Source: a virus
Virus record (IMG/VR): IMGVR_UViG_3300031963_000020
Span: 32,001-96,000 of that record
Strand: one strand, 5' to 3'
DNA: 64,000 bases
In this document: positions 1 to 41,121 of the stretch, piece by piece
Layout of the letters: every line of letters begins with the position of its first letter
How positions within the stretch are numbered: position 1 is the first letter of the stretch
Notes under the pieces: model-generated
Seen by the model: only the letters and a program-made list of their open reading frames with translations
Database searches by the model: none
Told to the model about the DNA's origin: nothing
Position numbers and translations under genes: made by a program

Positions 1-66
1 AAGTTAGAAGATGAAGGAAAAGATATCGAAGAAGATATCTTTGCAATCTCAAAGAGAGTTAAGTAA
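1..66 (+). CDS. 3' end of an upstream gene (partial; ...KLEDEGKDIEEDIFAISKRVK*)
   Basis: Frame open from the window edge to TAA at 64-66, which overlaps the next ATG (TAATG). Confidence 0.6.
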   Translation, partial: KLEDEGKDIEEDIFAISKRVK

Positions 67-8418: not shown

Positions 8419-9143
8419 TGTCGTTCGATGATTTGATTAAAACGTTTAAGGTGCAACCAGACTTGAATAGAGAGTTCTGGACATCTAATAACAAGCTTAA
8501 TCCAACTATTCGTGCAGCGTTGATGAAGATTGCAAAGGAGTTCTACGATAGTATTGACCTCGAAAATAAACCAAAGGTCAAAGACATTGTATTTACTGGT
8601 AGTTTAGCAAACTATAACTACTCACAATACTCCGATGTTGACCTTCATTTGTTATTTGATTTTGGTAAAGACAAGGAAATATTATCACAATTTTTCTTGT
8701 TAGCAAAGTCAAAATGGAATGATAAGCACGACATCACAATCAAGGGATATGATGTCGAAGTTTATGCAGAAGATGCAAGCTCACCTCACGTTGCAACGGG
8801 TTTGTATAGTGTATTGAAAAACAAATGGATTAAGGAACCAAAAAAAGAAACACCAGTATACGATGAACAAGACGTAATGACTAAGGTAAAACACATAGTT
8901 GGTATATTTGACCAACTAGTGAATCAATATAAGTCTGGTCAACTTACTGGATTAGATAAAAAAATTGAAAAATTTAGAGACAAGTTGGGTAAGTTTAGAC
9001 AATCTGGATTAGATACAGGTGGAGAATTCTCGACAGAAAATCTCACATTTAAGTTATTACGTCGAGCAGGATATATGGAAAAGTTAGCAAATCTACAAAA
9101 TATGACAACGGACAGACAACTTTCGGTCAAGGAAGTAAACTGA
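8418..9143 (+). CDS. Pol-beta-superfamily nucleotidyltransferase
   Basis: hGS-x-DhD catalytic motif FTGSLANYNYSQYSDVDLH with a third acidic residue in DVEVY, followed by a helical C-terminal domain. Confidence 0.75.
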   Translation: MSFDDLIKTFKVQPDLNREFWTSNNKLNPTIRAALMKIAKEFYDSIDLENKPKVKDIVFTGSLANYNYSQYSDVDLHLLFDFGKDKEILSQFFLLAKSKWNDKHDITIKGYDVEVYAEDASSPHVATGLYSVLKNKWIKEPKKETPVYDEQDVMTKVKHIVGIFDQLVNQYKSGQLTGLDKKIEKFRDKLGKFRQSGLDTGGEFSTENLTFKLLRRAGYMEKLANLQNMTTDRQLSVKEVN

Positions 9144-9144
9144 T

Positions 9145-10431
9145 ATGGCACAACTGATAGCAATAAACAAAACAACAGTAGAAGCAACAGATTTTACTAC
9201 AGGGTCATCAGACTTAGTATTACGTATACCACTAACGTCCGGCGAAGTTGTACAGTTTACCGCTGAAACACAATTTTTTACTCCAAGACAAATCGCAACA
9301 AGTAAATCAGATGTATTGGGATTGCCAAGTCAAAGTGTTGTAGAATACACAGCAAATAGTATTCCAGTAGTAAAATTACCATTGGGTGACGCCGAAATAC
9401 CTGCTACACAATATTATCCTATTTCCGTTGTAAGTGATGTATATATTGACGCACCAATTGATAACTTTTTTAGAGAGTTAGTGGATGATTTAGAACTACC
9501 AGAAGATCCTACACTTACTCAACTTCGTGACCAACGAGCAGCAGCAATGCAAGCAGCAATGGCACTAGAAGATTTATCCGCCGCAGCACAAGTAGCAGAC
9601 CCAGAATTGTTTGCCGAAGCTGATGATGCAATTACAGAAGGATTAGCAGAAGCAGTTCCAGCTGAACAACCAGACCCAACAGCAATCTTAACTCCGGAAG
9701 AAGCAGATGAATTAGCTGCTCTCGACCTAGTGGGTATTACGGACGCATCGGGTGTCACCGATGGTGCAGACGATATTATCGACCCAACCCCAGAAGTATT
9801 ATACGACGATTTAATCCAGAAACTTCCAAGAGTTCCTGGAAACGATAAAATTGAAGGTATTGATACAATCAACAAAGCAATTGATTTACTTAATGAAGGT
9901 ATTCAAGCAGTTGAAGAATCGACAAAAACTGGTGTTGACGAAGATGGTAAATGTAAGTTTATTACCGTTGCAAAGGGTAAAAAAGGATTCCGTGGTATTG
10001 GTAAAAAGAAAGAACGTAAGGTGTCTCGTGCAGATACAGAAGCTAAGTTAAAGTTGGTCAAAGAAGATATCGCTGCACAAGAAGCAAGCACTACAATATT
10101 AAAAAATCCACAAAGTGGTGTCAAACCACTTGTAAAAATTAGTAGATTGGCAGCATTTGGATCGGCAGTTGCAGGGTTTGCAAAAGGTGCAGGATTTCTT
10201 GGAGCGGTAGTTGGTGCGGTTGCAACAGTAGCTACAGGAGGATTGGCTGGTGGATTAATCGCAGCAGCAGGAACCACAGCAGCAGGTATTGTTGGGGGTG
10301 TAGCAACTAGTGCTGCAGGTGCTTTGGTCATTCCTCGTGGATACACATTGATGAGAAAAAATGATTATCTAAAAGTACTTAGAAAAACATCAGAACAATT
10401 AGAAAAAATATTGAATAAGGATTGTGACTAA
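9145..10431 (+). CDS. Hypothetical protein with acidic middle and C-terminal Gly/Ala-rich hydrophobic segment
   Basis: 428-aa ORF; ~60-aa glycine-zipper-like stretch AAFGSAVAG...SAAGALV. Confidence 0.6.
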   Translation: MAQLIAINKTTVEATDFTTGSSDLVLRIPLTSGEVVQFTAETQFFTPRQIATSKSDVLGLPSQSVVEYTANSIPVVKLPLGDAEIPATQYYPISVVSDVYIDAPIDNFFRELVDDLELPEDPTLTQLRDQRAAAMQAAMALEDLSAAAQVADPELFAEADDAITEGLAEAVPAEQPDPTAILTPEEADELAALDLVGITDASGVTDGADDIIDPTPEVLYDDLIQKLPRVPGNDKIEGIDTINKAIDLLNEGIQAVEESTKTGVDEDGKCKFITVAKGKKGFRGIGKKKERKVSRADTEAKLKLVKEDIAAQEASTTILKNPQSGVKPLVKISRLAAFGSAVAGFAKGAGFLGAVVGAVATVATGGLAGGLIAAAGTTAAGIVGGVATSAAGALVIPRGYTLMRKNDYLKVLRKTSEQLEKILNKDCD

Positions 10432-11381
10432 TGCCCAATCAAAATAATTTCGTTCAGGTTATTCCTAATAACCCACGATCATTTCCAGTATCACGTATTG
10501 CTGAATCGGATGCCGACCAAGATATTTTGGAGGGTAGACTTCCTGGACAATTTGGGTTTGATGCAGACGATACAATTGAAATGCATTTCTATGATACAGC
10601 AAATAGTCTAGTAGGGTCGGTAGTCATACCAGTAAGTACAGGAATAATATCGGCAAAAACTATTGCACTACCAGACGGAACTACTGATGAAAAAGTTATT
10701 ATAGATATGACCAGAGTTCAACAAGAACTTGGTTTACTAGTACCTCCGGGAAACTATAATGTATCTATAAACTTTTTTTCAGATGAAATTGGATCATACA
10801 CCGACCCAAAAATGATTGTTGAAGAAGTATCACCATCAAGAACAGAATTACGATTGGGATTTACTAACAATACGGTTACAACCACAGAACAAAGTGAATT
10901 ATTTGAATTTGTCCAACAATCAGTTCCTCGGGTAATTGCAGCAGGATTAGTTGCAGATACACTTGGGGTTAATCAACAAGGTACTGGTGTAGAAATAAAT
11001 CCAGAAATAGAAACATTAATTGATACATCAAGAACTGCAATTCAGGGATTTATAGATACTGTTGTAGAACAACTTATCGCAGAAAATCCAGACATTATAG
11101 GACAACTAGCAGATTTACAACCAGATGCTCCAGAAAACTTAAATTTTACTATAGAATTTTTAGTTGGTTCTATTTATGATGAGATGGTTGCCTTGTTGTC
11201 AACAACAAAGAATTCTAAGCAATTTGATAGATTACAAGAAGATGAGATGACAGTATTATTAACGCAGGCAATAGATAATGTCCTTAAAAATACTAATTTA
11301 AATTTATATACGCAAGACACAGTACGATACGAAACTAATTTGGTTGCAGACACATTTGCAACATCATTGGCATTGGGGTAA
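10431..11381 (+). CDS. Hypothetical (putative virion/baseplate) protein
   Basis: 316-aa acidic ORF, TAATG-coupled; GNYNVSINFF...EEVSPSRTELRL. Confidence 0.55.
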   Translation: MPNQNNFVQVIPNNPRSFPVSRIAESDADQDILEGRLPGQFGFDADDTIEMHFYDTANSLVGSVVIPVSTGIISAKTIALPDGTTDEKVIIDMTRVQQELGLLVPPGNYNVSINFFSDEIGSYTDPKMIVEEVSPSRTELRLGFTNNTVTTTEQSELFEFVQQSVPRVIAAGLVADTLGVNQQGTGVEINPEIETLIDTSRTAIQGFIDTVVEQLIAENPDIIGQLADLQPDAPENLNFTIEFLVGSIYDEMVALLSTTKNSKQFDRLQEDEMTVLLTQAIDNVLKNTNLNLYTQDTVRYETNLVADTFATSLALG

Positions 11382-11384
11382 TAT

Positions 11385-12983
11385 ATGGCTAACGCGGCAG
11401 ATTATTTAATACTAGATACAACACAGTTGATAAATACTTACAAGTTGAGAACTCGTAGTATACAATCTCGTACATTTGTAGCTAGAAATTCGGCACCAAA
11501 TTATATTCTATCGGCGGTTATAACATCAAATTTGGACGGGGTAGTAGTAACCCCAGGTGCATTTAAGCTGCAACCAGATGAAAGTATTACCGTATCAGTA
11601 GAATACGATACAAATCAATTAGAAGTGTACCCAGCGGGAACACTTGAAGGTTCACTTGACATCGCTGTTTCTGCAAATCCTGTGGTAATACCACAAATAC
11701 CAGTAGCACCTCCAGCTCCAGAACTACCAGAGGCTCCAAGACAAATTATTTCTCGTATACAAATTTTACCAACAAACTTTACTTTGTCCGAAGTTGGCGA
11801 AACAACACAGTTTAGTGCAGTGTTGTATGTTGACGATGTACCGGAACCCGCTACATTCCGGTGGAGTTTAGAAAATAATAGAGCGGGTGCATTTATAATA
11901 AACGAAAATACTGGTATTGTCAAAGCGTTAACTCCTGGAGTTACAAAAGCAAACGTAAAAGCTGTATTGTTAACCCCAACCAAATATTTGGGTACCGAAG
12001 GATTATCAATTGTTGCATCAAATATCGCAGTTGTAGTTCCTGTTGGAGGAGCACCAGTACCAACAACAGGTAACTTAACAGTTATTGTTAATGGTATGAC
12101 GAGAAATATAGGAGCAAGTGTAACAATATCTGGTATAAACCAATCAATAACTCAAACAACGACATTTAACAACATTCCAGCAGGTAATTACACAATTACA
12201 CCAAATGTTGTAACGGCTGGAGGAGTAAATTATAATCCAGTTGGTGGTGGTGAAATTTACGTAGCACCAGGACAAAATGCAGAGGTTACAATTCAGTACA
12301 CCAAACAACTACCACCTGATGTAAACTCAATTCAAATAGTAACGGTGTCTGACTCCGCAGGTAATGTATTACAACCAGGACAAAGAGTTAAGACTGGTGA
12401 AAGAATAGTTGTTGTAGCAAATACATACAGAAACGGTATTGTAGCAAATATTGGTGATGTACAGTTTACTGCAAACAACACACAAGAAGGTGTACAAACA
12501 GTACAATCTAGATCAGACGGTACATATAAAGTACTATTTACTGTTACGCAACCAGGTGAAATAAACATAACAGCGTTTAATCAATCAGCGGGTTCTGTAA
12601 CTGGTCAATTATCCGCAACACGTGCAACAGAATATAGTATTAGATTGGTAGCACCATCAACCTTAATTCTAGGACAATCTTCACCGTTAACTGCGGTAGT
12701 ACTACAAGATGGAGTAGAAACAAATATTCCTGTAGAAATTGAAATAGCAAGTGGTACAGGAACAATATCTAGTAAACGACCGGCAGAACTAAGGACGCAA
12801 CCACCAGTAACACCACCACAAGAACAACCAACTTTCGTAGCAGCGACCGAAGCAGCACAAACTGGAACGGCAACTGGTGGTACAATAGTAGACACTAGTG
12901 CAGCAGGAACATCTGGTGGAGTATCTACGGGTGGTGAATTTGACCAAATAGCATTTATAAATCAGGGACAAAACGCAATTTAA
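11385..12983 (+). CDS. Putative virion protein with several Ig-like beta-sandwich domains
   Basis: IQILPTNFTLSEVGETTQFSA...FRWS...INENTGIVKALTPG (Big_2-like) and FNNIPAGNYTITP. Confidence 0.6.
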   Translation: MANAADYLILDTTQLINTYKLRTRSIQSRTFVARNSAPNYILSAVITSNLDGVVVTPGAFKLQPDESITVSVEYDTNQLEVYPAGTLEGSLDIAVSANPVVIPQIPVAPPAPELPEAPRQIISRIQILPTNFTLSEVGETTQFSAVLYVDDVPEPATFRWSLENNRAGAFIINENTGIVKALTPGVTKANVKAVLLTPTKYLGTEGLSIVASNIAVVVPVGGAPVPTTGNLTVIVNGMTRNIGASVTISGINQSITQTTTFNNIPAGNYTITPNVVTAGGVNYNPVGGGEIYVAPGQNAEVTIQYTKQLPPDVNSIQIVTVSDSAGNVLQPGQRVKTGERIVVVANTYRNGIVANIGDVQFTANNTQEGVQTVQSRSDGTYKVLFTVTQPGEINITAFNQSAGSVTGQLSATRATEYSIRLVAPSTLILGQSSPLTAVVLQDGVETNIPVEIEIASGTGTISSKRPAELRTQPPVTPPQEQPTFVAATEAAQTGTATGGTIVDTSAAGTSGGVSTGGEFDQIAFINQGQNAI

Positions 12984-13001
12984 TATAGAAGGATTTTATT
13001 T

Positions 13002-13862
13002 ATGACAACTACAAGATACGTAACTGGTGATGGAATAGGTGCATTAACTCTCGTTGCTAGAGCAGTCGATCCTAACGGAAATTCAATCGTACAACAAACA
13101 ACAATTACAGTAAATCCGTCACCTTCTGTACCAAAATGCTATAGTGCAGTTTTAACACTTAGTACAGTACAAAGTAGTATTGAAACAGCATGTGCTCAAT
13201 TTGGAGCACTTGGTACATACTATTTGGGTTCACCAACTGCTACGGTATATAGCACCGATAGCTGTTCAGAAGTAGCGGTAGATGGATTTTACAAAACAGA
13301 AGATGGTAATTGGATTAATATTAATGCCGGTACAATAAGTCAACGTGGATCGTGTGTAACATTAACAGCACCAAGAGCAGTAGAAAGACGCCCACAAGAA
13401 TTTAATATCGGTGGTGTAACAAATACAGTATTTTTAACTCCACCAATAGCAGCTAGAATACCTGGAACACCAGATAGAGGTGAAGATTTTGTAAGAAAAC
13501 CATCGTTTACAAATCCGGCACCAAGCACAATTCCTGTAAAAGAACAATTTGTTAATGTACGTCAATCCGAAACAGTACCCCAACGCCTACCAGAACAATT
13601 GGTAGCTCGTATAAAAGAATTAGCTCCTACGAATGTTGATGAATTAATTTCACGTGCAAGGTCTTTGGGATTGAGTGTATCTCAAGATACTGCTACAACT
13701 ATTACTAGTGTTAGAGGTGGGCCGAAAAAACAAGCATTGTTTGTACGATTACGTCAACAGGTACAGGCAGCTATTGATAAAGCAGAAAGACAATCGGTTA
13801 ACGGTGGAGTAGTTGTATCAGAAACAAATCAAACAATATCCGACACCAACACAGAATTATAA
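13002..13862 (+). CDS. Hypothetical protein with a Cys-containing beta domain
   Basis: 286-aa ORF in structural operon; four Cys within ~75 aa. Confidence 0.55.
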   Translation: MTTTRYVTGDGIGALTLVARAVDPNGNSIVQQTTITVNPSPSVPKCYSAVLTLSTVQSSIETACAQFGALGTYYLGSPTATVYSTDSCSEVAVDGFYKTEDGNWININAGTISQRGSCVTLTAPRAVERRPQEFNIGGVTNTVFLTPPIAARIPGTPDRGEDFVRKPSFTNPAPSTIPVKEQFVNVRQSETVPQRLPEQLVARIKELAPTNVDELISRARSLGLSVSQDTATTITSVRGGPKKQALFVRLRQQVQAAIDKAERQSVNGGVVVSETNQTISDTNTEL

Positions 13863-22202: not shown

Positions 22203-23117
22203 ATGAACCTAATATCTCTGTTATCGCAAATACTCGGTGATTACAAGCAAATGGGCAAGGGGGAGCACTACTTCTCCTGTCCATTCTGCCATCATCACAA
22301 TAAGAAGTTTGCGGTGAATGTTGTTAAGAACAAATGGAAGTGTTGGGTCTGTGGAGCACGTGGTCGGCATTTGATTGGATTGTTCAAGAAGTTGGATGTC
22401 TCACCAGCACAAATCAAAGAGTTAAAGAAGTGTCTCAACGAAGATGATGTTAAGAGTTATGTAGATACTGACCCAGATGAAGTCGTAGAGCTTCACCTTC
22501 CGTATGAGTTCAAACCTCTTTGGAAACCAATCAATACTTTTGAATACAAGCACGCAATCAATTATTTAAAAAAGCGTGGTATTACGGGGTATGACATCAT
22601 CAGGTATCGTATGGGATATTGTGAAACAGGCACCTATGGTGGTCGTATCATTGTCCCGTCCTATGATGTATATGGGAAACTCAACTACTTTATTGCCCGC
22701 GCATATCACGACTCGGGTATGAAATATAAGAACCCACCAGTCTCGAAGAATGTGGTAGTATTCGAGGAACAAATCAACTGGAACGAACCTGTTGTGTTGG
22801 TGGAAGGAGTGTTTGATGCACTGGCGGTTCGTCGTAATGCAATCCCGATGTTGGGGAAGTTTATACCGAAGAAGTTGGAAGTCAAACTACTTGAAAATCG
22901 TGTCAAGAGAGTATATATTCTTCTTGATGATGATGCAAAGACGGAAGCAATACAGCTGGAACGCAAGTTGTCGGCATACGGAATACAAGTATCACAGGTG
23001 TCGGTGAGTGGTGGTGACGCCGCTGACCTTGGGTTCCAAAAGACCTGGGAGTTTATCAATGACTCGAAGGCAACTACCTTTAAGGACTTTATACAAAATA
23101 GGTTATCAAACGCATGA
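22203..23117 (+). CDS. DNA primase (DnaG/T4 gp61-like)
   Basis: Zn-binding CPFC...CWVC; GRIIVP...YFIAR; KYKNP; Toprim motifs LVEGVFDA and LDDDA. Confidence 0.85.
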   Translation: MNLISLLSQILGDYKQMGKGEHYFSCPFCHHHNKKFAVNVVKNKWKCWVCGARGRHLIGLFKKLDVSPAQIKELKKCLNEDDVKSYVDTDPDEVVELHLPYEFKPLWKPINTFEYKHAINYLKKRGITGYDIIRYRMGYCETGTYGGRIIVPSYDVYGKLNYFIARAYHDSGMKYKNPPVSKNVVVFEEQINWNEPVVLVEGVFDALAVRRNAIPMLGKFIPKKLEVKLLENRVKRVYILLDDDAKTEAIQLERKLSAYGIQVSQVSVSGGDAADLGFQKTWEFINDSKATTFKDFIQNRLSNA

Positions 23118-26100
23118 ATATAAGTGTCCCATTTAATAAACTAAAGAAAATAGTCCACCTCGCAGATATTCATATTCGATTATTTAAGCGACACGACGAA
23201 TACAACGAATGTTTCCAGACCCTCTATAACCAGTTGCGTCAAGAAGATTTGACCGACTCGGTTATTGTTGTTGCTGGTGACATCGTGCATGCTAAGACGG
23301 ATATGAGTCCTGAGATGGTGGTGATGGCTACGCAGTTCTTAAAGACGTTAGCTGACATGGCACCGACCATTATTATCGCAGGTAATCACGACCTCAACTT
23401 ATCCAATATGAACCGATTGGATAGTTTGACCCCTATCGTCGATAGTATCAATCACAAAGACCTGCATTACTTTAAGCACTCTGATGTTTACACGATTGCA
23501 GACACCGACTTTGCCGTATACTCCATTCTTGATGACAAGGAGAAGTGGCCGTCCCACAAGGATTGTCATTCTCGTCGTAAGGTGGCTCTCTATCACGGAC
23601 CTGTTCACGGCGCAACTACGGATGCACGATATACCATTACGAACCGACATGTCGAAGTCTCGGCATTCAACGGGTTCGATATGGTCTTACTTGGAGACAT
23701 TCATAGACATCAAGTATTGCAAGAACGAGACACAGAAAGCAAGAAACCTATCGTCGTATACGCATCGTCACTTATCCAACAGAACCACGGGGAAAGTGTC
23801 GATAATCACGGATGGTGCATGTGGGATGTGAATAGTTGTTCGTTCGAGTTCCGTCCACTTCCAAACAACTATGGCTACTACACAATAGAGGTGAAGGGTG
23901 GAAAGGTACCTGTATTGAATGATGTCCCGAAGAATGTTCGTATGCGCATATTCACGGGGAACCTTGATACTTCTGCGGTCAAGAAGTTGACGGCGGTATT
24001 ACGAAAGCAATACAACATTATTGAGTTAAGTATCAACAAGTCCAGATACGACAATACCAATCAAGAAAAGATGAAGAGTGGGATTGAGATTGTAGATGTC
24101 CAGAACATCAACAACCAGAACCAACTTATCCAAGATTGGTTAGAACGACAATATGACGATACGATTGACAAGCCGTTAATGGACAAAATCTTGGATGTCA
24201 ACAAGAACCTTAATGCTCAAATCAATCACGATGACCATTCCCGTAATGTGAACTGGCGCCCTCTTCAACTGAAGTTCTCGAATATGTTCTCGTATGGTGA
24301 GGACAATATCATCAACTTTGGCAAGATGAAGGGTATATATGGTATCTTTGCCAATAACGCATCGGGTAAGAGTTCCGCAATGGATGCCCTCATCTTTACC
24401 CTTTACGATAAGACTCCACGTGCGTTCCGTGGTGACCATATAATGAATAATCGTAAGGATACCTTTACCTGCCAGTTAAAGTTTGAAATCAACAATGAAA
24501 TCTTCTATATCCGTAGAACAGGTACCCGTAAAAAGACGGGTGATGTCAAGGTTGATGTCTCATTCTGGCGGGAAAACGAGGATGGAACCCACGAGTCGTT
24601 AAATGGTGAGGACCGCCGTGATACCAATGCCAATATCCGTAACTATGTCGGCACCTATGAAGATTTCGTCCTAACGGCACTCAGTAGTCAGAATAGTAAT
24701 GCGTTATTCATTGACAAGTCCCACTCTGAACGTAAAGACCTACTTATCCAGTTTATGGGATTAAGTATCTTTGACAAGTTATGTGACACCGCCAACGACG
24801 AGATGAAGGAAATCTCTGGGGCACTCCGTAAGTTTAAGAAGGTCGATTTCTCTCAGACATTATCCGATACCCAGAGTAAGTTGGATGCCACCCGTGAGGA
24901 ACACGAACGGGTAGAAGGGTTGTTCTCTAACATTAAACAGGAACAGGAAACCCTCTACGAGAAGTTAAAGGGATTACAGGAACAAAAACGACCTGTTCCG
25001 AATATTGAGTTGGATATTGATACCCTCTTATCTACGAAGGATAAGGTGGTTGACCTTGCGGCATCCTACGAAGAAGATAAGGGTGAAGCAGAAGGACGAT
25101 TACAATATATTCACGATACAATCGCAGAGAAAACAAAGGAAGTAGTAGATGCAAATATTCCAGAACTTCGGAACTCTGTTGAAGAATATAATAGATTATC
25201 TGACCTCTTTAATAAGGGTAGTAATGCCTTGAAGTTAACCACCTCGAAGATTGGGGAAAAGGTAAAGTTCCAAATCAAACTTGATAGTTACAAATACAAT
25301 CCAGATTGTGATGTTTGTGTTGACAACAATAAAACAATCATTTCTGATAAACAACAAGTAGCACAAGAGTTGTTGGAGTTGGAAGAGGTGCGAATCAAGC
25401 AAACAGCTGCTATCGAAGAAATCAAACAGCAGATGGAACCACTGGTCGAAAAGGTTAATCTCTGTGCATACTACGAGAAGATACAGAGTGAAGTCCAACA
25501 ACTCCAGAAAAAGGCAAGTGGGATTGAACTTGACATCCAAAAGATATTGACCAACATCGAAAAGTGTGACCGCAAGCGTGAGCAAGTGGAAAAGGACATT
25601 GAACTCCATCGGTCAAACAAAGAAAATATAGAATATAATATTGAGATAGATGAACGTATTGACCATATCCAATACGACATCACTACATCTAAAAAGAAGG
25701 CCGACCACATGGAAAAGGTTGTCCGTGACTTGCATGGTGAGATTAAAGTATTAGAAGCCACCAAGACAGACATTATGAACCAGATTAAGGAAGCTGAGGA
25801 GTTAGAAGCAACCTACGAGGCGTACAAGTATTATATGGAAGCGGTGGGTCGTGATGGTATTCCATATGACTTGATGAGTAAGGCAATCCCGAACATCGAA
25901 GCTGAAATAAATAATATTTTAAGTCAGATTGTGGACTTCACTATCTCACTCGAAGTGGATGGAAAGAACATCGTCGGTAAGTTAAACTACGATTATGACC
26001 GCGTATGGCCGCTGGAAAACTCATCTGGGATGGAACGCTTCATTAGTAGTCTGGCAATCCGTGTAGCCTTGATGAACGCTTCGAACCTTCCAAAGTCCAA

Positions 26101-26293
26101 CTTCTTGATTATTGATGAAGGATTGGGGACATTAGACGCCGAGAATATGACTTCGATGCATACCCTATTCGGTATCTTAAAGGCTCAATTTGATTTCCTT
26201 ATCGTCATCAGTCATTTGGATGTGGTCAGAGATATGGTAGACAACTTAATTGAGATAAAAAGAGAGGACGGATTCTCCTATATTCAGTCGTGA
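23114..26293 (+). CDS. Fused Mre11/SbcD nuclease - Rad50/SbcC ATPase (T4 gp47-gp46-like)
   Basis: Phosphoesterase motifs LADIH, AGDIVH, GNHD, YHG, GDIH; then Walker A NNASGKSS, coiled coil with CDVC hook, signature SSGME, Walker B LIIDEG, H-loop ISH. Confidence 0.9.
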   Translation: MNISVPFNKLKKIVHLADIHIRLFKRHDEYNECFQTLYNQLRQEDLTDSVIVVAGDIVHAKTDMSPEMVVMATQFLKTLADMAPTIIIAGNHDLNLSNMNRLDSLTPIVDSINHKDLHYFKHSDVYTIADTDFAVYSILDDKEKWPSHKDCHSRRKVALYHGPVHGATTDARYTITNRHVEVSAFNGFDMVLLGDIHRHQVLQERDTESKKPIVVYASSLIQQNHGESVDNHGWCMWDVNSCSFEFRPLPNNYGYYTIEVKGGKVPVLNDVPKNVRMRIFTGNLDTSAVKKLTAVLRKQYNIIELSINKSRYDNTNQEKMKSGIEIVDVQNINNQNQLIQDWLERQYDDTIDKPLMDKILDVNKNLNAQINHDDHSRNVNWRPLQLKFSNMFSYGEDNIINFGKMKGIYGIFANNASGKSSAMDALIFTLYDKTPRAFRGDHIMNNRKDTFTCQLKFEINNEIFYIRRTGTRKKTGDVKVDVSFWRENEDGTHESLNGEDRRDTNANIRNYVGTYEDFVLTALSSQNSNALFIDKSHSERKDLLIQFMGLSIFDKLCDTANDEMKEISGALRKFKKVDFSQTLSDTQSKLDATREEHERVEGLFSNIKQEQETLYEKLKGLQEQKRPVPNIELDIDTLLSTKDKVVDLAASYEEDKGEAEGRLQYIHDTIAEKTKEVVDANIPELRNSVEEYNRLSDLFNKGSNALKLTTSKIGEKVKFQIKLDSYKYNPDCDVCVDNNKTIISDKQQVAQELLELEEVRIKQTAAIEEIKQQMEPLVEKVNLCAYYEKIQSEVQQLQKKASGIELDIQKILTNIEKCDRKREQVEKDIELHRSNKENIEYNIEIDERIDHIQYDITTSKKKADHMEKVVRDLHGEIKVLEATKTDIMNQIKEAEELEATYEAYKYYMEAVGRDGIPYDLMSKAIPNIEAEINNILSQIVDFTISLEVDGKNIVGKLNYDYDRVWPLENSSGMERFISSLAIRVALMNASNLPKSNFLIIDEGLGTLDAENMTSMHTLFGILKAQFDFLIVISHLDVVRDMVDNLIEIKREDGFSYIQS

Positions 26294-26297
26294 TAAC

Positions 26298-26305
26298 TAT
26301 TTATA
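26298..26305 (+). promoter_or_regulatory. Putative late promoter TATTTATA
   Basis: 34 nt before ATG 26332, where structural genes resume after the replication island. Confidence 0.6.
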
Positions 26306-26331: not shown

Positions 26332-28149
26332 ATGGCACGAACTAGAAAAGCATTAGGAAAGCAATTTTTAAACCAGGTACCTGTCTTGATTGAAGATTCA
26401 AGTCAGGAATCTGTGTATTTTAATATAAAAAAATTAGATAGTTATTTCACTGGTGGTAAGAACGCTTTTCTTGTTACTGGAACAGGATTACTGGAACCAA
26501 ACACCACCATTCAAATTGAAATATTAGACGTTGATGGAAACAGTATTTATGTAGAAGCTATACGTAATTTTTCTGAAGCAGGGTCACGTGTGGTGGTAGT
26601 TGAAATATACGAAAACACACCACGAGGACCAGCTATTCTCACGATATTAGGAACTGCTAGACGTTTAGCAAACGGACAATCTATACCTGATATTTGGCAA
26701 GGTCGTGTTAATTTACGTTGGCAAAAGAAACTCATTGTAGAACCAAAAGCAAGAAACAACACACCAATACGAATTAAAAGACAACCTGAAATTATTACAA
26801 GTGAATTACTATTGACAGGTTCATTACTCAGTCAATCTCGTATCAATAATCCTATAGGTCAAATTACATTAACACCAAAAAATGTATTAAATAAACAACG
26901 TGGTTATATAGTAACTCTTAATAGTGGTAGTGCGTTCAAAGGATTTCATTTAACACCAAAAATAACAGGAAGTTTTAGTTTACAAGAACGTAAATATACG
27001 GGGACAATACCAGCAACAACTGAATCAATACAGATACTTTCAAACCACACAGCATCCGTAGATTTACCACTTTCTCATTTAAATGCATCACGGTCATTTA
27101 CCGATGTAAATATTACTAGCTCGACAGATAATAATATACTTAATTTTACACCAGTAAGAAATGGACAATACGAAATAGGTGAAACATTATATACAGCGTC
27201 ATCTACCACGTATATTAGAACTGCAAAATCAATCACATCCTCACTTAACTACAGTTTTATAAGTGAAAGTTCTACATTGATAACCAGTAGTATATTATCG
27301 TTTGCGAAACTTCGTATCATAAATCTAGATACAGTTAGTGGTGAAATCTTTAGAATTAAGGCGTCGGGTAAGCAAGCAGGTGCACAAACAGATTTCGGTT
27401 TCATAGCAGATACACCAACTACAGTAGGTGAACTATTAATAACCAGTTCTACAGACCAAGATGATAGAGAACAACCAATTGGTATATTTAACACTCATGC
27501 GATATTAACTGCAAGTTGGTATGCACATAATGTTACGGGGTCTGGTATACCTGATACCTCATATGGTGATGATACGTTAAATGCATCTACGCATATTAGT
27601 TTAAGTCTTGATGATAGTAATATCTTGGATGCAGGATATGCGGTCACTGCTACAAGTAGCTACTTTATAGGAACACGAGAAGAATTTGCTTTATTTCCAA
27701 CATCTGAGTATACACTAAAATTTGATAGTTATGTATATACTACATCTGGAGCATTCGCATACACAGCAAGTGCCTATAATACAGACGTATATATAACTGG
27801 TTCCGCTATCGCTGGTAATAATCTATTTGGTCAAAAAATAGGTTCAATCACCACTACGGGCAAAGCAGGATATTTCCCAAATAAACAGTTTAATTTTACA
27901 GTTCCACGTAGTGGTAGTGCTGGATTACGATTTGTAGTAAATAATGGGTTCTGGCAATTTGCAAATATTTCATTAAAGGTTGCGGAAGAGTATGCATTTA
28001 GCCCCGACGAAGTTATCGTTACGATTCCAAACGATGCGGCAAATACGTCAAGTTTGATATTTAAAACAGATTTGTTTGATATTAACAATAATGCATTAGA
28101 TTTAAATATTCAGTCAGTTCCAACTATCTTTACAGGTTCAAGACGATGA
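26332..28149 (+). CDS. Putative virion structural protein (beta-rich)
   Basis: 605-aa Ser/Thr-rich ORF preceded by the TATTTATA element. Confidence 0.55.
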   Translation: MARTRKALGKQFLNQVPVLIEDSSQESVYFNIKKLDSYFTGGKNAFLVTGTGLLEPNTTIQIEILDVDGNSIYVEAIRNFSEAGSRVVVVEIYENTPRGPAILTILGTARRLANGQSIPDIWQGRVNLRWQKKLIVEPKARNNTPIRIKRQPEIITSELLLTGSLLSQSRINNPIGQITLTPKNVLNKQRGYIVTLNSGSAFKGFHLTPKITGSFSLQERKYTGTIPATTESIQILSNHTASVDLPLSHLNASRSFTDVNITSSTDNNILNFTPVRNGQYEIGETLYTASSTTYIRTAKSITSSLNYSFISESSTLITSSILSFAKLRIINLDTVSGEIFRIKASGKQAGAQTDFGFIADTPTTVGELLITSSTDQDDREQPIGIFNTHAILTASWYAHNVTGSGIPDTSYGDDTLNASTHISLSLDDSNILDAGYAVTATSSYFIGTREEFALFPTSEYTLKFDSYVYTTSGAFAYTASAYNTDVYITGSAIAGNNLFGQKIGSITTTGKAGYFPNKQFNFTVPRSGSAGLRFVVNNGFWQFANISLKVAEEYAFSPDEVIVTIPNDAANTSSLIFKTDLFDINNNALDLNIQSVPTIFTGSRR

Positions 28150-30959
28150 ACATAAACAAATTATTTGAACAAATAGTAGCACTTGACGATTATGTTGAGC
28201 AACACAATTTCTTGGTAGAGACACTTGCACCACAACTTGTGGAAGAATTAGCTATTACAACGACTGATACATTGGAAGAAGCAAAAAAGAAGCGTAAGAA
28301 GGCAAAAGAAAAGATTAAACGATATGGATTTTTCTATCCATTATATCCTCGTGTAATTAAAACTGGTGAACAACCAAAAGAAGAACCAACAACACCACCA
28401 ACGGAACCAACCGATAGTGGTGATGCTGGAGCTGGTGATACTGGTGGTGTGGATGAAATTAAGCCACAAAATGTAGATAACGCATTTGCATTTCCTTATT
28501 CACTTGGTCCGGAGCAAGATGATGAATTCTTACAAAAAGAAGCACTATCAAGTACGGAACGGATGCGTAGGTACAACAAGCGTCACCCCGAAAAAGTTCG
28601 TCAGTACCTTAAAAAGACTCAGGATGACCGCGTTGCCCGTAACCGCGACCGTAAAAAAGCAGTAAAGAAATACGGCAAAACAAAGATGAAGAACCATGAC
28701 GTACATCATCCAAACGGACCACATAATGGTGGTGCTCGCTTGGTACGTAAAGATCATGGACGAGATAAGAAAAACGAAAATATTGAGTACGTATATCTCT
28801 CCGAGTTATTAGAAGGTAATGTACCAAATGGTCCGTGGATATTGTTATCAGAGGGTGGAGCAGCAGGACATTTAGCGCATCCATACGAAGATGATAGTTT
28901 GACGTTTAAAGATTTAAAAGAAATGGCAAAACGTGGTTTGGTCGGTGGATTAGATGCAGAAGGTCCAGTCACCGAAAAACTTGACGGACAGAACATCACC
29001 TTTAGTGTACGTGATGGTCGTGTGGTATTTGCTCGTAATAAAGGTCAAGTCAAAAATCGTGGACAGAACGCATTACCAGCAGCAGACTTACGACAAATGT
29101 TTGCTGGTCGTGGTGATATAGAAAAAGCATTTGGAAACTCAGCAGATGACTTACAAGCAGCAGTAGACGCATTACCACAAGAACAACGAGACGCGATGTT
29201 CGGTGATGGTCGTAAGTTTATGAATGTAGAAATTATATTCCCAGATACAAAAAATGTTATTCCATACGGTAAACCAGTGTTGGTATTTCATGGAACTATT
29301 GAATATGATGATGCAGGGGAAGAGATTGGTCGTAATGTAGATGATGCAAAAATTTTGGACCAACAACTTCAAGCAGTTAGTGCACAAAAACAACGCACAT
29401 TTGGCATATCAGGTCCACAACCTATTACATTTAATGATGCCGACACAGTACGCAATAAAGAACGATTACAACAATACGGTGCAGAAATTGCACGTATTCA
29501 AGAAGAATATGACCTTGATGATAATTCTACATTAGAAGATTACAAGGTGGCATGGTGGAATAGAGAAATTGATAATATGGGTATCGATTGGACTCCACAA
29601 GAACGTGAAGGTCTTATTCGTCGTTGGGCAATGGGTGAAAAGAAGTTTGGGGTCAAAGATATTGAAGATCCTGAAAAGAAAAAGGCATTTAGACAATTTG
29701 AAGTAAACGAACTTAAAGATAAACAAAAGGCTGCTACTCGTCCAATAGAACGTATTTTTTTACGTATTGGTGCAGATACGTTACTACGCGTCACTAATAC
29801 TCTTGGAGCTAATAATCCAGAGATGGCAGCACAATTAAAACAAGAAGTTAGAGATGCTATAGAAAAGATTAAAGACGCTGGTGATGAAAATCAATTGGCA
29901 ATGTTACAGCAACAAATAGAACGGTTAGATGACCTTGGTATTGAACGTGTGGTTCCAAGCGAAGGGTTGGTCTTTATCTATAATGGTAAACCATATAAAT
30001 TTACTGGAGCATTTGCACCAGTCAATCAAATCCTTGGTATGATGAAGTTTCAACGAGGTAAAGCTAAAGTTGTTGATGAACCAGAAAAGAAACCAGCAGA
30101 AGAACCACAAGTAACCACACAAACAACAACTACACCAACTGGTGAAAAACGAACCATTGCTATTTTTCCTGGTCGTTTTCAACCATTCCACGCAGGACAT
30201 TACAGTATCTATCGTGCTTTGGTCGAAAAGTTTGGTAAAGAAAATGTTTATATCGCAACCAGTGATAAGACCGACCCAACCAAATCACCATTTGGGTTTG
30301 TTGAAAAGAAAGACATTATCACAAGAATGTTTGATATTCCGGAAGATATGGTGGTACAAGTAAAAAATCCATACGCACCAGTTGAAATCACCGGTAATAT
30401 GCCAGACAATACAGTTGTGGTAACTGCAGTCAGTGAAAAAGACTCAGAACGATTAACGGGTGGTAAATACTTTACACCGTATGATGGTGAAACAGCGACA
30501 CAAGGATTTAAAGATAAAGGATATTTCATAGTTGCACCAGAAATGCAACTACAACTTCAAGGCAAAAACATTAGTGGAACTCAAGTTAGAGCATTGTTAG
30601 GTAATCCAAATATTACTGACGAAGCAAAAGAAGAAATATTCACAATGATATATGGTAAGTTCGACCCAGACATATTTAAAAAGATTGTTAAAACTACTAC
30701 GGACTCAGAAAAAGCATTGGCACTTACACAACAGCATGGTGGTAAAAAAGCTGCAAAACCACGAGTAAAAAAGAAAGCGGGAGAACCACAAAAAGGTGTG
30801 AGAAAAAAAGCAGTAAAACCAGAACCAAAAGATCCATCATTTTACAAACCTGGTGAATCGTGGGAAACTGAAACTGGAAACTTTGGTGGCAAGAATAAAA
30901 AGAATCAAGTAAGATATTTTGGTACAAAGGACCGAGCAGACAAATTCGCTAAATCATAA
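28146..30959 (+). CDS. Multidomain protein: degenerate HNH-like segment, RNA-ligase-like covalent nucleotidyltransferase and HxGH cytidylyl/adenylyltransferase
   Basis: TEKLDGQN (motif I), NVEII, LVFHG, SEGLVF...PYKF (motifs IV/V); PGRFQPFHAGH and ISGTQVR of the HIGH-superfamily fold. Confidence 0.7.
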   Translation: MNINKLFEQIVALDDYVEQHNFLVETLAPQLVEELAITTTDTLEEAKKKRKKAKEKIKRYGFFYPLYPRVIKTGEQPKEEPTTPPTEPTDSGDAGAGDTGGVDEIKPQNVDNAFAFPYSLGPEQDDEFLQKEALSSTERMRRYNKRHPEKVRQYLKKTQDDRVARNRDRKKAVKKYGKTKMKNHDVHHPNGPHNGGARLVRKDHGRDKKNENIEYVYLSELLEGNVPNGPWILLSEGGAAGHLAHPYEDDSLTFKDLKEMAKRGLVGGLDAEGPVTEKLDGQNITFSVRDGRVVFARNKGQVKNRGQNALPAADLRQMFAGRGDIEKAFGNSADDLQAAVDALPQEQRDAMFGDGRKFMNVEIIFPDTKNVIPYGKPVLVFHGTIEYDDAGEEIGRNVDDAKILDQQLQAVSAQKQRTFGISGPQPITFNDADTVRNKERLQQYGAEIARIQEEYDLDDNSTLEDYKVAWWNREIDNMGIDWTPQEREGLIRRWAMGEKKFGVKDIEDPEKKKAFRQFEVNELKDKQKAATRPIERIFLRIGADTLLRVTNTLGANNPEMAAQLKQEVRDAIEKIKDAGDENQLAMLQQQIERLDDLGIERVVPSEGLVFIYNGKPYKFTGAFAPVNQILGMMKFQRGKAKVVDEPEKKPAEEPQVTTQTTTTPTGEKRTIAIFPGRFQPFHAGHYSIYRALVEKFGKENVYIATSDKTDPTKSPFGFVEKKDIITRMFDIPEDMVVQVKNPYAPVEITGNMPDNTVVVTAVSEKDSERLTGGKYFTPYDGETATQGFKDKGYFIVAPEMQLQLQGKNISGTQVRALLGNPNITDEAKEEIFTMIYGKFDPDIFKKIVKTTTDSEKALALTQQHGGKKAAKPRVKKKAGEPQKGVRKKAVKPEPKDPSFYKPGESWETETGNFGGKNKKNQVRYFGTKDRADKFAKS

Positions 30960-32218: not shown

Positions 32219-33805
32219 ATGAACGCAACAGCACAGCAGTTACGTGAACGTATTAAAGAAGAATATAAGAAGTGTGCAATACAGCCAGATTACTTCTTAT
32301 CAAAATATTCATACATTCAACACCCGATTCGTGGTCGGGTGTTGTTTGATTTATACAAATATCAAAAAAACGCTTTATATGACTTCGAGAAAAGTGATTA
32401 TAATATCGTTCTCAAAGGCCGTCAGATTGGTATTTCTACATTGGTCGCAGGATACGCTCTGTGGTTAATGTTGTTCCATAAAGATAAGAATATCCTTGTT
32501 ATCGCAACTAAACAAGAAACCGCAAAGAACTTAGTTACCAAAGTTAAGTTCATGCATCAAAACCTCCCAACATGGTTACGTGGTGAAGTAGTCACGGATA
32601 ATAAGCTATCACTCCAATTTTCTAACGGCTCACAGATTAAAGCGGTGGCATCATCACCAGACGCAGGACGTTCTGAAGCATTGTCTCTTCTTATTCTCGA
32701 TGAAGCTGCATTCATCGATGACGCAGATATCATCTGGACGGCAGCATCATCCACATTATCAACGGGTGGTAAAGCAATATTACTTTCTACTCCAAACGGT
32801 GTGGGTAACTTCTTTCACAAGATGTGGCAACAAGCGGAGGTCAAGACCAACGGATTCAATCCTATTCTATTAGATTGGCGAGTTCATCCAGAACGTGACC
32901 AAGCATGGCGTGATAGACAAACGGAACTGATGGGTGAAATGCAAGCGTCACAAGAACACGATGCGTCATTTATCTTCTCTGGTAATACGGTGGTTCCGCC
33001 AGAAATTATTGAGTTTTACAAAGCATCGTTTGTTCAAGAACCAGTTACCAAAGGTGGGTTTGACGGAAACTTATGGGTATGGGAATATGCACAACCTGGT
33101 CGGTCATACATTGTCTGTGCTGACGTTGCTCGTGGAGATGGTGAGGACTATTCGGCATTTCACGTAATAGATGTAGAATCGTCTACCCAAGTAGCAGAAT
33201 ACAGAGGAAAGGTAGAAACTAAGCAGTTTGGTAATATGTTGGTATCTATCGCAACCGAATATAATGACGCACTACTCATCCCAGAAAATAGTAGTATAGG
33301 ATGGAACGCTGTGCAACAAATTATTGATCGTGGATATAAAAATCTCTTTTATATGTCCAAAGATTTACAATATGTTGACGTAGAACATCAAATGACAGGA
33401 CGATATAGAGCAGAGGAACGGCAAATGGTTCCTGGATTCACCACATCACAACGTACTCGTCCGTTAGTTATTGCACGATTAAAAGAATATATGTTAGAAA
33501 ATAGTTTTACTATTAGGTCAGCAAGAATGTGTGCTGAATTAGAAACATTTATTTGGAAGAATGGTAGACCAGAAGCATTATCTGGTTATAATGATGACTT
33601 GACAATGGCATTATGTATTGGTCTGTGGGTTCGTGATACTGCCCTCCGTTTGCGTCAGGAAGGTATAGAACTGACGAAGATGGCGTTAGACAAGGCCAAG
33701 TATAATGTGGTCGGTCACATCTACACAAACAGAGACAGAGCACAAAATCCATACGAGATGCAAGTTGGAACTGGAAAGGAAGATATTAGGTGGTTACTAG
33801 GATAA
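32219..33805 (+). CDS. terL: Terminase large subunit (T4 gp17-like)
   Basis: LYKYQK adenine-binding motif, Walker A KGRQIGIST, Walker B LILDEAAF, LSTPNG, nuclease motifs ADVARG...DYSA and NDDLTMA. Confidence 0.95.
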   Translation: MNATAQQLRERIKEEYKKCAIQPDYFLSKYSYIQHPIRGRVLFDLYKYQKNALYDFEKSDYNIVLKGRQIGISTLVAGYALWLMLFHKDKNILVIATKQETAKNLVTKVKFMHQNLPTWLRGEVVTDNKLSLQFSNGSQIKAVASSPDAGRSEALSLLILDEAAFIDDADIIWTAASSTLSTGGKAILLSTPNGVGNFFHKMWQQAEVKTNGFNPILLDWRVHPERDQAWRDRQTELMGEMQASQEHDASFIFSGNTVVPPEIIEFYKASFVQEPVTKGGFDGNLWVWEYAQPGRSYIVCADVARGDGEDYSAFHVIDVESSTQVAEYRGKVETKQFGNMLVSIATEYNDALLIPENSSIGWNAVQQIIDRGYKNLFYMSKDLQYVDVEHQMTGRYRAEERQMVPGFTTSQRTRPLVIARLKEYMLENSFTIRSARMCAELETFIWKNGRPEALSGYNDDLTMALCIGLWVRDTALRLRQEGIELTKMALDKAKYNVVGHIYTNRDRAQNPYEMQVGTGKEDIRWLLG

Positions 33806-33844: not shown

Positions 33845-34003
33845 ATGATTAAATTAGTTGATATTTTGTTGACAGAAAAATGGACAAACAGATACAAAAA
33901 GTCCATAAATTGTAGTAATCCAAAGGGTTTCAGCCAAAAAGCACATTGCGCTGGACGTAGAAAGCGTAAACGTGGTGGGAAAACAACATCAAAACCGGTA
34001 TAA
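33845..34003 (+). CDS. Small basic protein MIKLVDILLTEKWTNRYKKSINCSNPKGFSQKAHCAGRRKRKRGGKTTSKPV (not in the ORF track)
   Basis: 52-aa ORF translated by hand; fills the gap after terL, lies 34 nt after TATTTATA and carries the shared leader. Confidence 0.75.
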   Translation: MIKLVDILLTEKWTNRYKKSINCSNPKGFSQKAHCAGRRKRKRGGKTTSKPV

Positions 34004-40034: not shown

Positions 40035-40532
40035 ATGGACAAAACACAACAAATTCGTGAACGCGTCCGACAAATTATCAAGAAAAAACTTGATGAAATG
40101 ACAACGACAGCAAATGTTCCTGGATACCTAACTCCATATTCGTTTCGTGGTAATAAAGCAAAGAGTGTAGCACGTTCTAAGCATATTGCCACCGCAACCA
40201 CAGGATTTAAGTTAACTCCAAAGGGTGAAGAAGAAGCAAATCGTCCAGCCGATAAAATGGAAATTGTCACTAAGGAATTAAACGAAAACAAGTATTACGA
40301 ATATAAGAACGACACATCAAAGACACCACACAGAAAGATTGCAGAAGCTATTTCACAACTTAATAGAAATTTACAAGAAGTTGAACGTGTTATTAGAATG
40401 AATAGTCGTTTAAAGACTGAATCAGGTATCGCAAGTGAACAACTATGGAAGCGTACACAACAAGGATTATTGAAGTTGGAATCAAGACTTCTTGGACTTG
40501 CAACACGCATCCGTGAAATCCGTGGGCAATAA
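40035..40532 (+). CDS. Hypothetical head-associated protein
   Basis: IRERVRQIIKKKLDE leader, then MTTTANVPGYLTPYSF and a C-terminal coiled coil. Confidence 0.65.
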   Translation: MDKTQQIRERVRQIIKKKLDEMTTTANVPGYLTPYSFRGNKAKSVARSKHIATATTGFKLTPKGEEEANRPADKMEIVTKELNENKYYEYKNDTSKTPHRKIAEAISQLNRNLQEVERVIRMNSRLKTESGIASEQLWKRTQQGLLKLESRLLGLATRIREIRGQ

Positions 40533-40533
40533 T

Positions 40534-41121
40534 ATGCAAACATTACTCGTAGAATATAATGTCATTTCTTATGACACTACTTTATTAAAAGAAGCAGCAG
40601 ACATCAGTAAACCTTTGATGTTAAAAGATGTTTTACTTCAACGTGCAGAAATGAAGAACCAGAATGGTCGTGTATATCCAAAGGAAATCTTATCACGTGA
40701 AGCAATGGTATACAAGAATAACTTCGTATCACAACGCCGTGCACTTGGTGAACTCGACCATCCAGAAAGTCCTGTCGTCAACTTAAAAAACGTCTGTTGC
40801 AACGTCACCGAACTCTGGTTCGAAGGTGATGATGTCAAGGGCAATATCGAAATTTTATCTACCCCATCAGGCAATATCGTTCGTGAACTCATCAAGAACA
40901 ATATCCGATTGGGTGTTTCATCCCGTGGTATGGGTTCTGTCAAACCAATCGGTGAGAATACTGTAGAAGTTGGTGATGACTTCTCACTTATCTGCTTTGA
41001 TATTGTCAGTAATCCAAGTACTCACGGGGCATTTATCAACGAAAACAAGGGTGGTCAAATTATCACCCCCTATAGTCGTATTGATACATTGATATATGAC
41101 TTTTTAGGTGAACTAAAGTAA
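40534..41121 (+). CDS. Prohead maturation protease (T4 gp21-like)
   Basis: Start reassigned to 40534; NQNGRVYP, ALGELDHP, GVSSRGMGS, FDIVSNPSTHGA. Confidence 0.92.
   Translation: MQTLLVEYNVISYDTTLLKEAADISKPLMLKDVLLQRAEMKNQNGRVYPKEILSREAMVYKNNFVSQRRALGELDHPESPVVNLKNVCCNVTELWFEGDDVKGNIEILSTPSGNIVRELIKNNIRLGVSSRGMGSVKPIGENTVEVGDDFSLICFDIVSNPSTHGAFINENKGGQIITPYSRIDTLIYDFLGELK

Follow-up and report, generated by a model that had tools for sequence, protein, structure and literature searches.

A ligase-like domain fused to an HxGH nucleotidyltransferase in a T4-type phage: a candidate adenylyltransferase pair for polynucleotide end repair

A gene that occupies positions 28146–30959 of the DNA stretch studied here (the window, 64,000 nucleotides corresponding to bases 32001–96000 of the 148,340-bp, approximately 72% complete viral record IMGVR_UViG_3300031963_000020) encodes a 937-residue protein in which a ligase-like domain, hereafter LIG, is joined to a nucleotidyltransferase domain of the HxGH type. 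The open reading frame (ORF), described in a first-pass annotation of the sequence, is genuine, and each motif listed for it was recovered in its place. On the basis of its motifs and of structure models, LIG very probably belongs to the covalent nucleotidyltransferase (ligase) superfamily, in which it would form a new branch, and there is comparably strong reason to regard the two domains as functionally coupled. The reading that best accommodates the evidence, to which we give about an even chance, is that they act as coupled adenylyltransferases in the repair of polynucleotide ends, probably those of RNA, and are probably delivered from the capsid.

Conservation was assessed over 147 LIG and 112 HxGH domains from representatives at 50% identity. 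The ligase-type motif set that had been read from the central domain proved to be ordered and conserved in 144–147 of the 147 representatives. In motif I (TEKLDG, residues 276–281, positions 28971–28988), K278, D280 and G281 are each kept in 146 sequences, as are R297 of motif Ia and E362 of motif III (FMNVEIIF, residues 358–365); H382 of motif IIIa (LVFHG, residues 379–383) is kept in 144, whereas E606 and G607 of motif IV (SEGLVF, residues 605–610, positions 29958–29975) and K618 and G621, in and after PYKF (residues 616–619), are present in all 147. The family alignment is collinear, with the consensus blocks EK(L/T)DGQN, (F/A)ARNKG, FMNxE, LVFHG, PSEGxVF and YKxTG. LIG also carries an N-terminal GGAxGHxxHP motif, of which G237, G238, G241, H242 and H245 are kept in 143–145 of the 147 domains.

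Structure models were obtained with AlphaFold for the full-length protein (mean predicted local distance difference test score, pLDDT, 69.4) and for residues 224–650 (pLDDT 80.8, predicted template modelling score 0.78). The motif residues of LIG fall, in the model, on those strands that would carry them in the adenylyltransferase core of a ligase; for the GGAxGH segment the model has low confidence. The long helical insertion that had been noticed ahead of motif IV appears in both models as a domain of about 170 residues. When LIG was compared with the PDB using Foldseek, the top matches were almost all RNA ligases (T4 Rnl1, Rnl3, Rnl2, Trl1), and VIA aligned it with a range of solved ligases and capping enzymes (Pmar-Lig, ASFV ligase, Trl1, Rnl3, Rnl2, REL1, Cgt1, Pce1, LigD, Rnl1). 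In every one of these cases, more than 12 solved structures in all, residue 57 of the LIG model was aligned to the position two residues after the catalytic lysine, which places K278 opposite that lysine in the model superposition. The register can be read directly from the PDB titles for T4 Rnl1 K99M, aligned from 101, and for the P. pacificus K92A structure, aligned from 94; for the remaining structures it rests on the catalytic lysines given in the literature. In BFVD, members of the family came first, followed by many lower-ranking proteins annotated as viral RNA ligases. The VIA-wide list is dominated by designed helical bundles because of the helical insertion of LIG, and says nothing about its core; the best profile matches in the PDB (eS6, E 0.02) are likewise located in the insertion and were judged spurious. 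Taken by the tests applied, LIG lies outside every named ligase family and is probably descended from RNA/DNA ligases. On fold and catalytic residues, the two points at which the first-pass assignment was most exposed, the model is compatible with the ligase fold and the residues are kept in the homologues.

The assignment of the second domain is secure at the level of fold and catalytic motifs: it is, as the first-pass annotation had proposed, a bona fide HxGH nucleotidyltransferase, and its closest relatives are NadM and the archaeal nicotinamide mononucleotide (NMN) adenylyltransferases (NMNAT). The signature PGRFQPFHAGH spans residues 675–685 (positions 30168–30200, with GRFQPFHAGH at 30171–30200 and FHAGH at residues 681–685) and ISGTQVR residues 809–815 (30570–30590); H685 is kept in 111 of 112 domains, S810 and R815 in 105. 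The domain exceeds the cut-offs of PF01467 (CTP_transf_like; 25.5 bits versus 21) and TIGR00125 (27.8 versus 27.7 bits). Among PDB sequences the M. jannaschii NMNAT MJ0541 matched best (E 8.7e-6), Francisella NadM being found as well, and the top Foldseek matches of the full model, each at probability 1.00, were without exception NadD, NadM, PPAT or archaeal NMNAT structures, NadM being the most similar in sequence (17–22% identity). The nearest phage sequences outside the family are NadM/Nudix proteins of the KVP40 (NatV) type, at about 25% identity. The domain is very probably active as an adenylyl- or nucleotidyltransferase; that its product is nicotinamide adenine dinucleotide (NAD+) we consider less likely than not. 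About one-fifth of the HxGH domains in the family (P0150, P0211, P0212, P0214, P0223, P0243 and others) have GRFQP(F/M)GxHH instead, with the first histidine moved by two positions. The same phage encodes a second enzyme of the HIGH family about 70 kb from the target, a minimal 118-residue HxGH protein (GRFQPWHKGH ... ISATKIRK) whose gene is preceded by one for a 144-residue P-loop kinase (approximately 132611–133368 of the record G000:C1, or 1495–2252 of locus L005, outside the window).

The LIG family is large. A word-index search with the 937-residue ORF gave 899 homologues, and an exhaustive search with LIG by itself gave 1816 representatives at 50% identity, 1297 of them at E <1e-10, so that the family comprises at least 1816 such clusters. 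In Atlas and BFVD it is almost wholly viral and its only database name is "cytidyltransferase-like". When our own hidden Markov models were mapped on the best 150 of the 1816 representatives, both domains were found in 108, with HxGH first in 91. The arrangement HxGH then LIG accounts for 86, two HxGH domains with HxGH first for 5, the order of the target, LIG then HxGH, for 16, and a mixed order for one; 42 have LIG only. Several apparent LIG-only members contain a divergent GGFKPPHxGH domain, one is truncated at a contig edge and closely preceded by the end of an HxGH domain, and another has its HxGH domain in an overlapping adjacent gene. The linker between the two domains reaches 1292 residues in the family. 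That fusion occurs in both orders over so broad a range argues strongly for a process in which both enzymes take part. A complex prediction for LIG (residues 245–634) and HxGH (residues 666–866) scored 0.00, which weighs neither way. A short LIG-only relative (locus L009, 2038–2436, 4498–4752) lies two genes from a NUDIX gene and is also close to a gene for a phage ribosomal protein, bS21.

Additional domains were surveyed in 76 long relatives. Some are fused to a complete CCA-adding enzyme (PolyA_pol, 216 bits, with RNA-binding and HD domains), some to P-loop kinases of the Zeta_toxin/AAA_33 type, and others contain ROS_MUCR zinc fingers, DUF5661 or Toprim_3. CCA-adding enzymes and kinases are classic companions of RNA-end repair. 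Of the functions suggested in the first-pass annotation (RNA repair, regeneration of NAD or another cofactor, a modified nucleotide), RNA repair therefore gains contextual support from relatives fused to CCA-adding/HD enzymes and P-loop kinases, and a classical NadV–NadM salvage of NAD was abandoned, as set out below. RNA is slightly favoured over DNA as the substrate of LIG because of these CCA-adding and kinase partners, a separate DNA ligase in the phage, and the lack of any other RNA-ligase match in the 148-kb record (about 72% of the genome). LIG was rejected as a replicative DNA ligase, at least as its main role, because the genome contains a separate canonical ATP-dependent DNA ligase (PF01068) at record positions 137941–138462.

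The proposal that the protein is carried in the virion rests in part on its N-terminus. The leader MNINKLFE contains an L6-x-E8 triplet that is kept in 32 of 40 close homologues, and many members of the family share such a leader regardless of the domain that comes next (for example, MNELSKFLVESILLEA, MNKLTEWLVKPFLEE and MKTFLDFSKQTLVE); an (L/I/V/F/M)-x-E triplet is found within the first 22 residues of 80% of the members versus 31% in shuffles. In T4, the prohead protease gp21 cleaves after L/I-X-E, the first ~10 residues of internal proteins serve as a capsid-targeting sequence that also loads Alt, and Alt, an ejected enzyme, sheds a 7-residue propeptide (PMC9026906, PMC3012670). Both parts of the signature of T4-type internal proteins are present here, in that the leader terminates in (L/I)-x-E and the genome encodes a protease of the gp21 type. 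Small ORFs between the terminase, portal and protease genes begin with MIKLVDILLTE, MILLTDLLDE, MIRLTDILCE, MIKLTDLITE or MRLKALLNE and, judged by these leaders, look like T4-style capsid-targeted internal proteins; leader-bearing small ORFs start at 33845, 35602, 35948, 36832, 41395 and 21333, and a further leader reads MSKLVELLE. Whether the target protein itself is directed to the capsid in this way we rate as an evenly balanced question.

Apart from the leader, disordered sequence contains conserved (L/I)-x-E sites at just three places, LSE220 (31 of 34 homologues), LLE223 (26 of 34) and LSE236 (all 40), the last of which abuts GGAAGH. Family-wide, the residue at P3 ahead of GGAxGH is L or I in 130 of 135 sequences and that at P1 is E in 109. 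Other candidate module boundaries were discarded: LEE45 is kept in just 9 of 37 homologues, and VDE and QKE do not have L or I at P3, which leaves LFE8 and the 218–236 cluster as the only conserved sites. No conserved (L/I)-x-E site occurs in the linker between LIG and HxGH (residues 635–664), and the mature product, if the protein is processed, would therefore be a single LIG–HxGH chain of about 79 kDa.

The genomic setting points in the same direction. Broadly defined, the phage is a myovirus of the T4 type, and all large genes in the window are on the + strand. An operon of the order 26332 > 28146 > 30969 > 31585 (a small membrane/coiled-coil protein) > terminase is headed by the word TATTTATA, a candidate phage promoter. 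This word occurs seven times in the window, always on the + strand, always between genes and never within one, at a distance of 30–40 nucleotides from the gene starts at 18556, 26332, 33845, 46634, 49135, 51840 and 63281; its total count equals the chance expectation and its placement is non-random. It precedes the target operon as well as operons of head, neck and tail genes, usually with (a/c)(a/c) directly 5', and this placement supports co-expression of the target with virion genes. The T4 late-promoter word TATAAATA is absent in gene orientation, the recurring element being its reverse. Late expression, which the first-pass annotation had assumed, is thus backed, indirectly, by the position in the operon and by the promoter-like element common to virion genes.

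The succession of LIG gene, zinc-ribbon gene, small gene, TerL, T4-type portal and S77 protease is conserved in distant phages, around relatives just 35–45% identical that include a 764-residue HxGH–LIG protein, a 1909-residue form and a short form. The zinc-ribbon proteins of the syntenic loci are clear homologues, with C74, C77, C95 and C98 invariant in the alignment, together with conserved tryptophans; the protein of this phage has no Pfam or PHROG family, and may act in packaging, perhaps in the manner of a small terminase, or else serve as LIG's partner. In Microcystis phage Mel-JY01, the homologue of the target (gene 11243–13162) lies a few genes upstream of the terminase.

Combining these observations, the protein would be produced alongside the virion proteins and loaded into the prohead by means of its N-terminal leader, where the T4-type prohead protease probably cuts behind LFE8 and LSE236, so that LIG and HxGH stay together on a single chain (residues 237–937). 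Ejected with the DNA, this chain would make end repair available ahead of phage gene expression. LIG would form a Lys278–AMP intermediate and then join the ends of broken polynucleotides, more probably RNA (tRNA) than DNA; the HxGH domain, a presumed descendant of NadM/archaeal NMN adenylyltransferases, would transfer AMP from ATP to a phosphate acceptor, either NMN, giving NAD+, or another 5'-phosphate, and the two activities would belong to one pathway.

Several observations weigh against this scheme. Ligases have two lysines in motif V, K-x-K, and in the Y-K618-F-T620-G of LIG the second is replaced by T620 (145 of 147). The Pfam RNA_ligase model PF09414 matches LIG at 15.2–17.2 bits, below its gathering threshold of 27 bits, over the motif I region only, and 5 of 20 family members give such matches. 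Neither the single sequence nor a 20-member profile reached any solved ligase in the PDB, and the structural matches are individually weak, with E values of 0.1–1 in Foldseek and Z of 3.2–5.6 over about 100 residues in VIA. As to repair, the 937-residue protein has no end-healing domain (kinase, phosphatase or 2H), and in the 148-kb record, about 72% of the genome, the distant 144-residue P-loop kinase is the only candidate for this step; moreover, we know of no role for an HxGH enzyme in RNA repair. The constancy of the HxGH domain is, even so, what makes the family most interesting. As to packaging, the target leader is a loose version of those of the neighbouring small ORFs, P1 ahead of GGAxGH is Cys or Met in 24 of 135 sequences, and the (L/I)-x-E at that place could simply be part of the LIG domain. 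Synteny with the terminase, finally, is common and not universal, because in one clade (L010) the gene pair is found in a replication module, away from the terminase.

Among the alternatives, one that we regard as possible, if rather unlikely, places NAD at the centre and takes the HxGH domain for a true NMN adenylyltransferase, which either supplies NAD+ to an NAD+-dependent LIG, with the freed NMN recycled on the same chain, or restores NAD+ lost to host NADase defences, LIG being a separate activity. The closest relatives of the domain, NadM, the archaeal NMNATs and phage NatV, do share with it GRFQPFHxGH, (S/N)PF..E(K/R) and SGTxxR, and obligate pairing in either order would fit cofactor channelling. 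The GGAxGHxxHP motif of LIG is placed where NAD+-dependent ligases have their NMN-binding domain Ia (PMC9503650), but in the segment that is modelled at low confidence. The NMNAT equivalog and subfamily cut-offs of NCBIfam were, however, all missed by a wide margin (26–28 bits versus 127–449), with matches to the equivalog profiles confined to their first ~60 residues. Phages with NadM, as surveyed, always have NadV (PMC9503650), and neither NadV (NAPRTase) nor a Nudix protein was matched in the 148-kb record, an absence that is unproven because the record is about 72% complete. These results led us to reject classical NadV–NadM salvage. NADases, furthermore, release nicotinamide and not NMN, and an NMNAT alone therefore cannot rebuild NAD+.

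A role in DNA metabolism tied to packaging, in which LIG, working with the terminase and the zinc-ribbon protein, would seal nicks or process genome ends ahead of packaging, in its course or just after ejection, appears improbable to us. It draws on the position directly upstream of the zinc-ribbon gene and TerL, which holds in distant phages, on the DNA ligases among the best VIA matches (Pmar-Lig, Z 5.6; ASFV ligase, Z 4.9), and on the ROS_MUCR and Toprim_3 domains of some relatives. Set against these are the exceptions to terminase synteny, the CCA-adding fusion partner, which points to RNA, and the canonical ATP-dependent DNA ligase that the phage already has; in addition, LIG lacks the accessory domains of DNA ligases, OB or other, because the chain stops about 15 residues past motif V and then passes into the linker.

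A bolder elaboration, which we consider a long shot, is that LIG and HxGH make up a closed adenylyl cycle on RNA, delivered ready-made from the capsid at DNA entry. In one version, LIG may be an NAD+-dependent RNA ligase whose NMN by-product the same chain converts back to NAD+; in a second version, the HxGH domain may adenylylate a 5'-phosphate, or add NMN to a 5'-triphosphate, for use by LIG, the latter amounting to post-transcriptional NAD capping. To our knowledge, no such cycle has been described for RNA. The least probable of the readings weighed here, in which LIG is no ligase and nucleotidylates a protein or small molecule or caps RNA 5' ends, through a lysine–nucleotide or without one, or acts with HxGH to make or destroy a dinucleotide or signalling nucleotide and so subvert host defence, could appeal to the single-lysine motif V, GGAxGHxxHP and the large helical insertion that separate LIG from characterised ligases, to the capping enzymes Cgt1 and Pce1 that superpose in register too, and to the ability of HxGH enzymes to run backwards on dinucleotides (PMC8131947), but in structure LIG comes closest to RNA and DNA ligases, no domain related to defence signalling was found in the 76 long relatives, and partners of the kinase and CCA-adding kinds typify end repair.

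Comparison with characterised systems helps to place the end-repair reading. With ATP-dependent RNA ligases (T4 Rnl1, Rnl2, archaeal Rnl3, the ligase domain of fungal Trl1), LIG shares the motifs I, Ia, III, IIIa, IV and V in their order and an occurrence in phages, some of its relatives being fused to kinase and tRNA-end enzymes; a β-rich adenylyltransferase core is predicted for it, and K278 falls on the catalytic lysine in superpositions that are individually weak. It differs in lacking a C-terminal accessory domain and having, in its stead, the helical domain inserted between IIIa and IV, in the K-x-T of motif V, in the extra GGAxGHxxHP and in the near-constant HxGH partner, besides its failure at the PF09414 cut-off and in sequence and profile matching to solved ligases. 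The HxGH domain has the GRFQPFHxGH and SGTxxR motifs and the HxGH Rossmann fold of NadM and archaeal NMNATs (MJ0541, Francisella NadM, KVP40 NatV), at identities of about 17–25%, but is fused to LIG and not to a Nudix partner, and has a GxHH sub-clade. Like T4 Pnkp plus Rnl1 in tRNA repair, the target would be a phage-encoded kit for rejoining RNA cut by host nucleases, extended in certain members of the family by a P-loop kinase or a CCA-adding/HD enzyme; the T4 enzymes are separate, early and unpackaged, whereas the target has no kinase or phosphatase and its adenylyltransferase has no counterpart in T4 repair. With T4 Alt and internal proteins it has in common the L-x-E leader, a location of its gene in the head region and a genome that encodes a T4-type protease and portal, but the putative cargo would be a ligase-like/adenylyltransferase pair and not an ADP-ribosyltransferase or a restriction inhibitor.

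The family also resembles the polyvalent proteins, long multi-enzyme chains with disordered linkers for which co-injection with DNA has been proposed (Iyer et al. 2017, PMC5512222), in its unrelated enzymatic domains, disordered linkers and a domain make-up that varies among relatives. The polyvalent hub domains MPTase and ArdC-N were not found in it, and the polyvalent-protein survey reports no ligase-superfamily or HIGH-nucleotidyltransferase domains (PMC5512222). We found no paper on a LIG–HxGH fusion, on which surveys of phage RNA repair, NAD+ and polyvalent proteins are silent. For the "cytidylyltransferase" in the virion of S-CREM2 (PMC10665884), homology to the HxGH domain could not be established.

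The remaining parts of the protein and of its surroundings are listed in Table 1. In the basic N-block, which is modelled at modest confidence, columns are almost invariant among homologues. Its HDVHHPNG...KDHG resembles HNH_3 by eye, but an HNH identity is unsupported: there were no Pfam matches even at E 10, searches of the PDB returned nothing but repeat proteins, and Atlas gave scores of just 0.75–0.78, with HNH_3 in 51% of the members of one cluster. The C-terminal module is conserved in the clade, has no Pfam match and no second copy in this window. The same module (PGE.W.T..G..GGKN..RYF) occurs twice (9030–9197 and 9336–9440 of locus L007) in a 415-residue gene of a related phage that sits between terminase and portal, and seems to be a mobile unit among the proteins of the head cluster. 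The 605-residue product of the upstream gene gave no Pfam or PHROG match. Further upstream, an SbcD-like nuclease (N-terminal, phrog_100) and an SbcC-like ATPase (phrog_77) form a single 1059-residue ORF (23114–26293); SbcD and SbcC are normally the products of two genes.

Table 1. Features of the target protein, its gene and the surrounding window
Feature	Residues	Window position	Strand	Remarks
Baseplate wedge		5462	+	
TATTTATA copies		18516, 26298, 33811, 46596, 49096, 51810, 63241	+	
Primase		22203	+	
Promoter-like element TATTTATA		26298–26305	+	heads the target operon
Ser/Thr-rich gene, 605 residues		26332–28149	+	ATGA overlap with target, translationally coupled
Target ORF (P0001)	1–937	28146–30959	+	reading frame open
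Leader MNINKLFE	1–8	28146–28169	+	candidate T4-type capsid-targeting sequence/propeptide, ends L-x-E
Helical N-terminus	1–60			model
Disordered	61–134			model
Basic N-block	135–215	28548–28790	+	two long helices and β-hairpin with HDVHHPNG...KDHG
Disordered stretch with LSE220, LLE223, LSE236		28797–28853	+	pLDDT 43–48; directly before LIG
LIG domain	237–634	28854–30047	+	GGAAGHLAHP; I K278 (28977–28979), Ia R297, III E362, IIIa H382, IV E606-G607, V K618
Helical insertion, ~170 residues	431–600	29436–29945	+	between motifs IIIa and IV, both models
Lys/Glu/Pro/Thr-rich disordered linker	635–664	30048–30137	+	pLDDT <50
HxGH nucleotidyltransferase domain	668–864	30147–30737	+	pLDDT ~80–88; NadM/archaeal-NMNAT-like
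Disordered	865–894			model
C-terminal β-β-β-α module	897–937	30834–30956	+	PGESWETETG..GGKN..RYF; pLDDT 84–91
Four-Cys zinc-ribbon protein, 204 residues		30969–31583	+	directly 3' of the LIG-family gene, also in distant phages
Large terminase		32219–33805	+	phrog_2, 172 bits; final gene of target operon
T4-type portal		37197	+	Portal_T4, 220 bits
T4-type prohead serine protease		40492–41121	+	Peptidase_S77, PF03420, 94.3 bits; candidate reader of (L/I)-x-E sites
Major head protein		44932	+	
Head-tail adaptor		46634	+	

If the assignment of LIG is right, phages harbour a widespread branch of the ligase superfamily that is nameless in domain libraries and has an obligate NMNAT-like partner, which raises the question of why end joining requires a second adenylyltransferase. 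Such a branch could yield a new type of RNA ligase, with or without NAD+ dependence, for the molecular-biology toolbox. Were the capsid-delivery proposal to hold as well, an RNA- or NAD-directed pair would join the short list of catalytic cargo in T4-type heads, and would extend current ideas on how phages may pre-empt anticodon-nuclease or NAD-depleting defences of their hosts.

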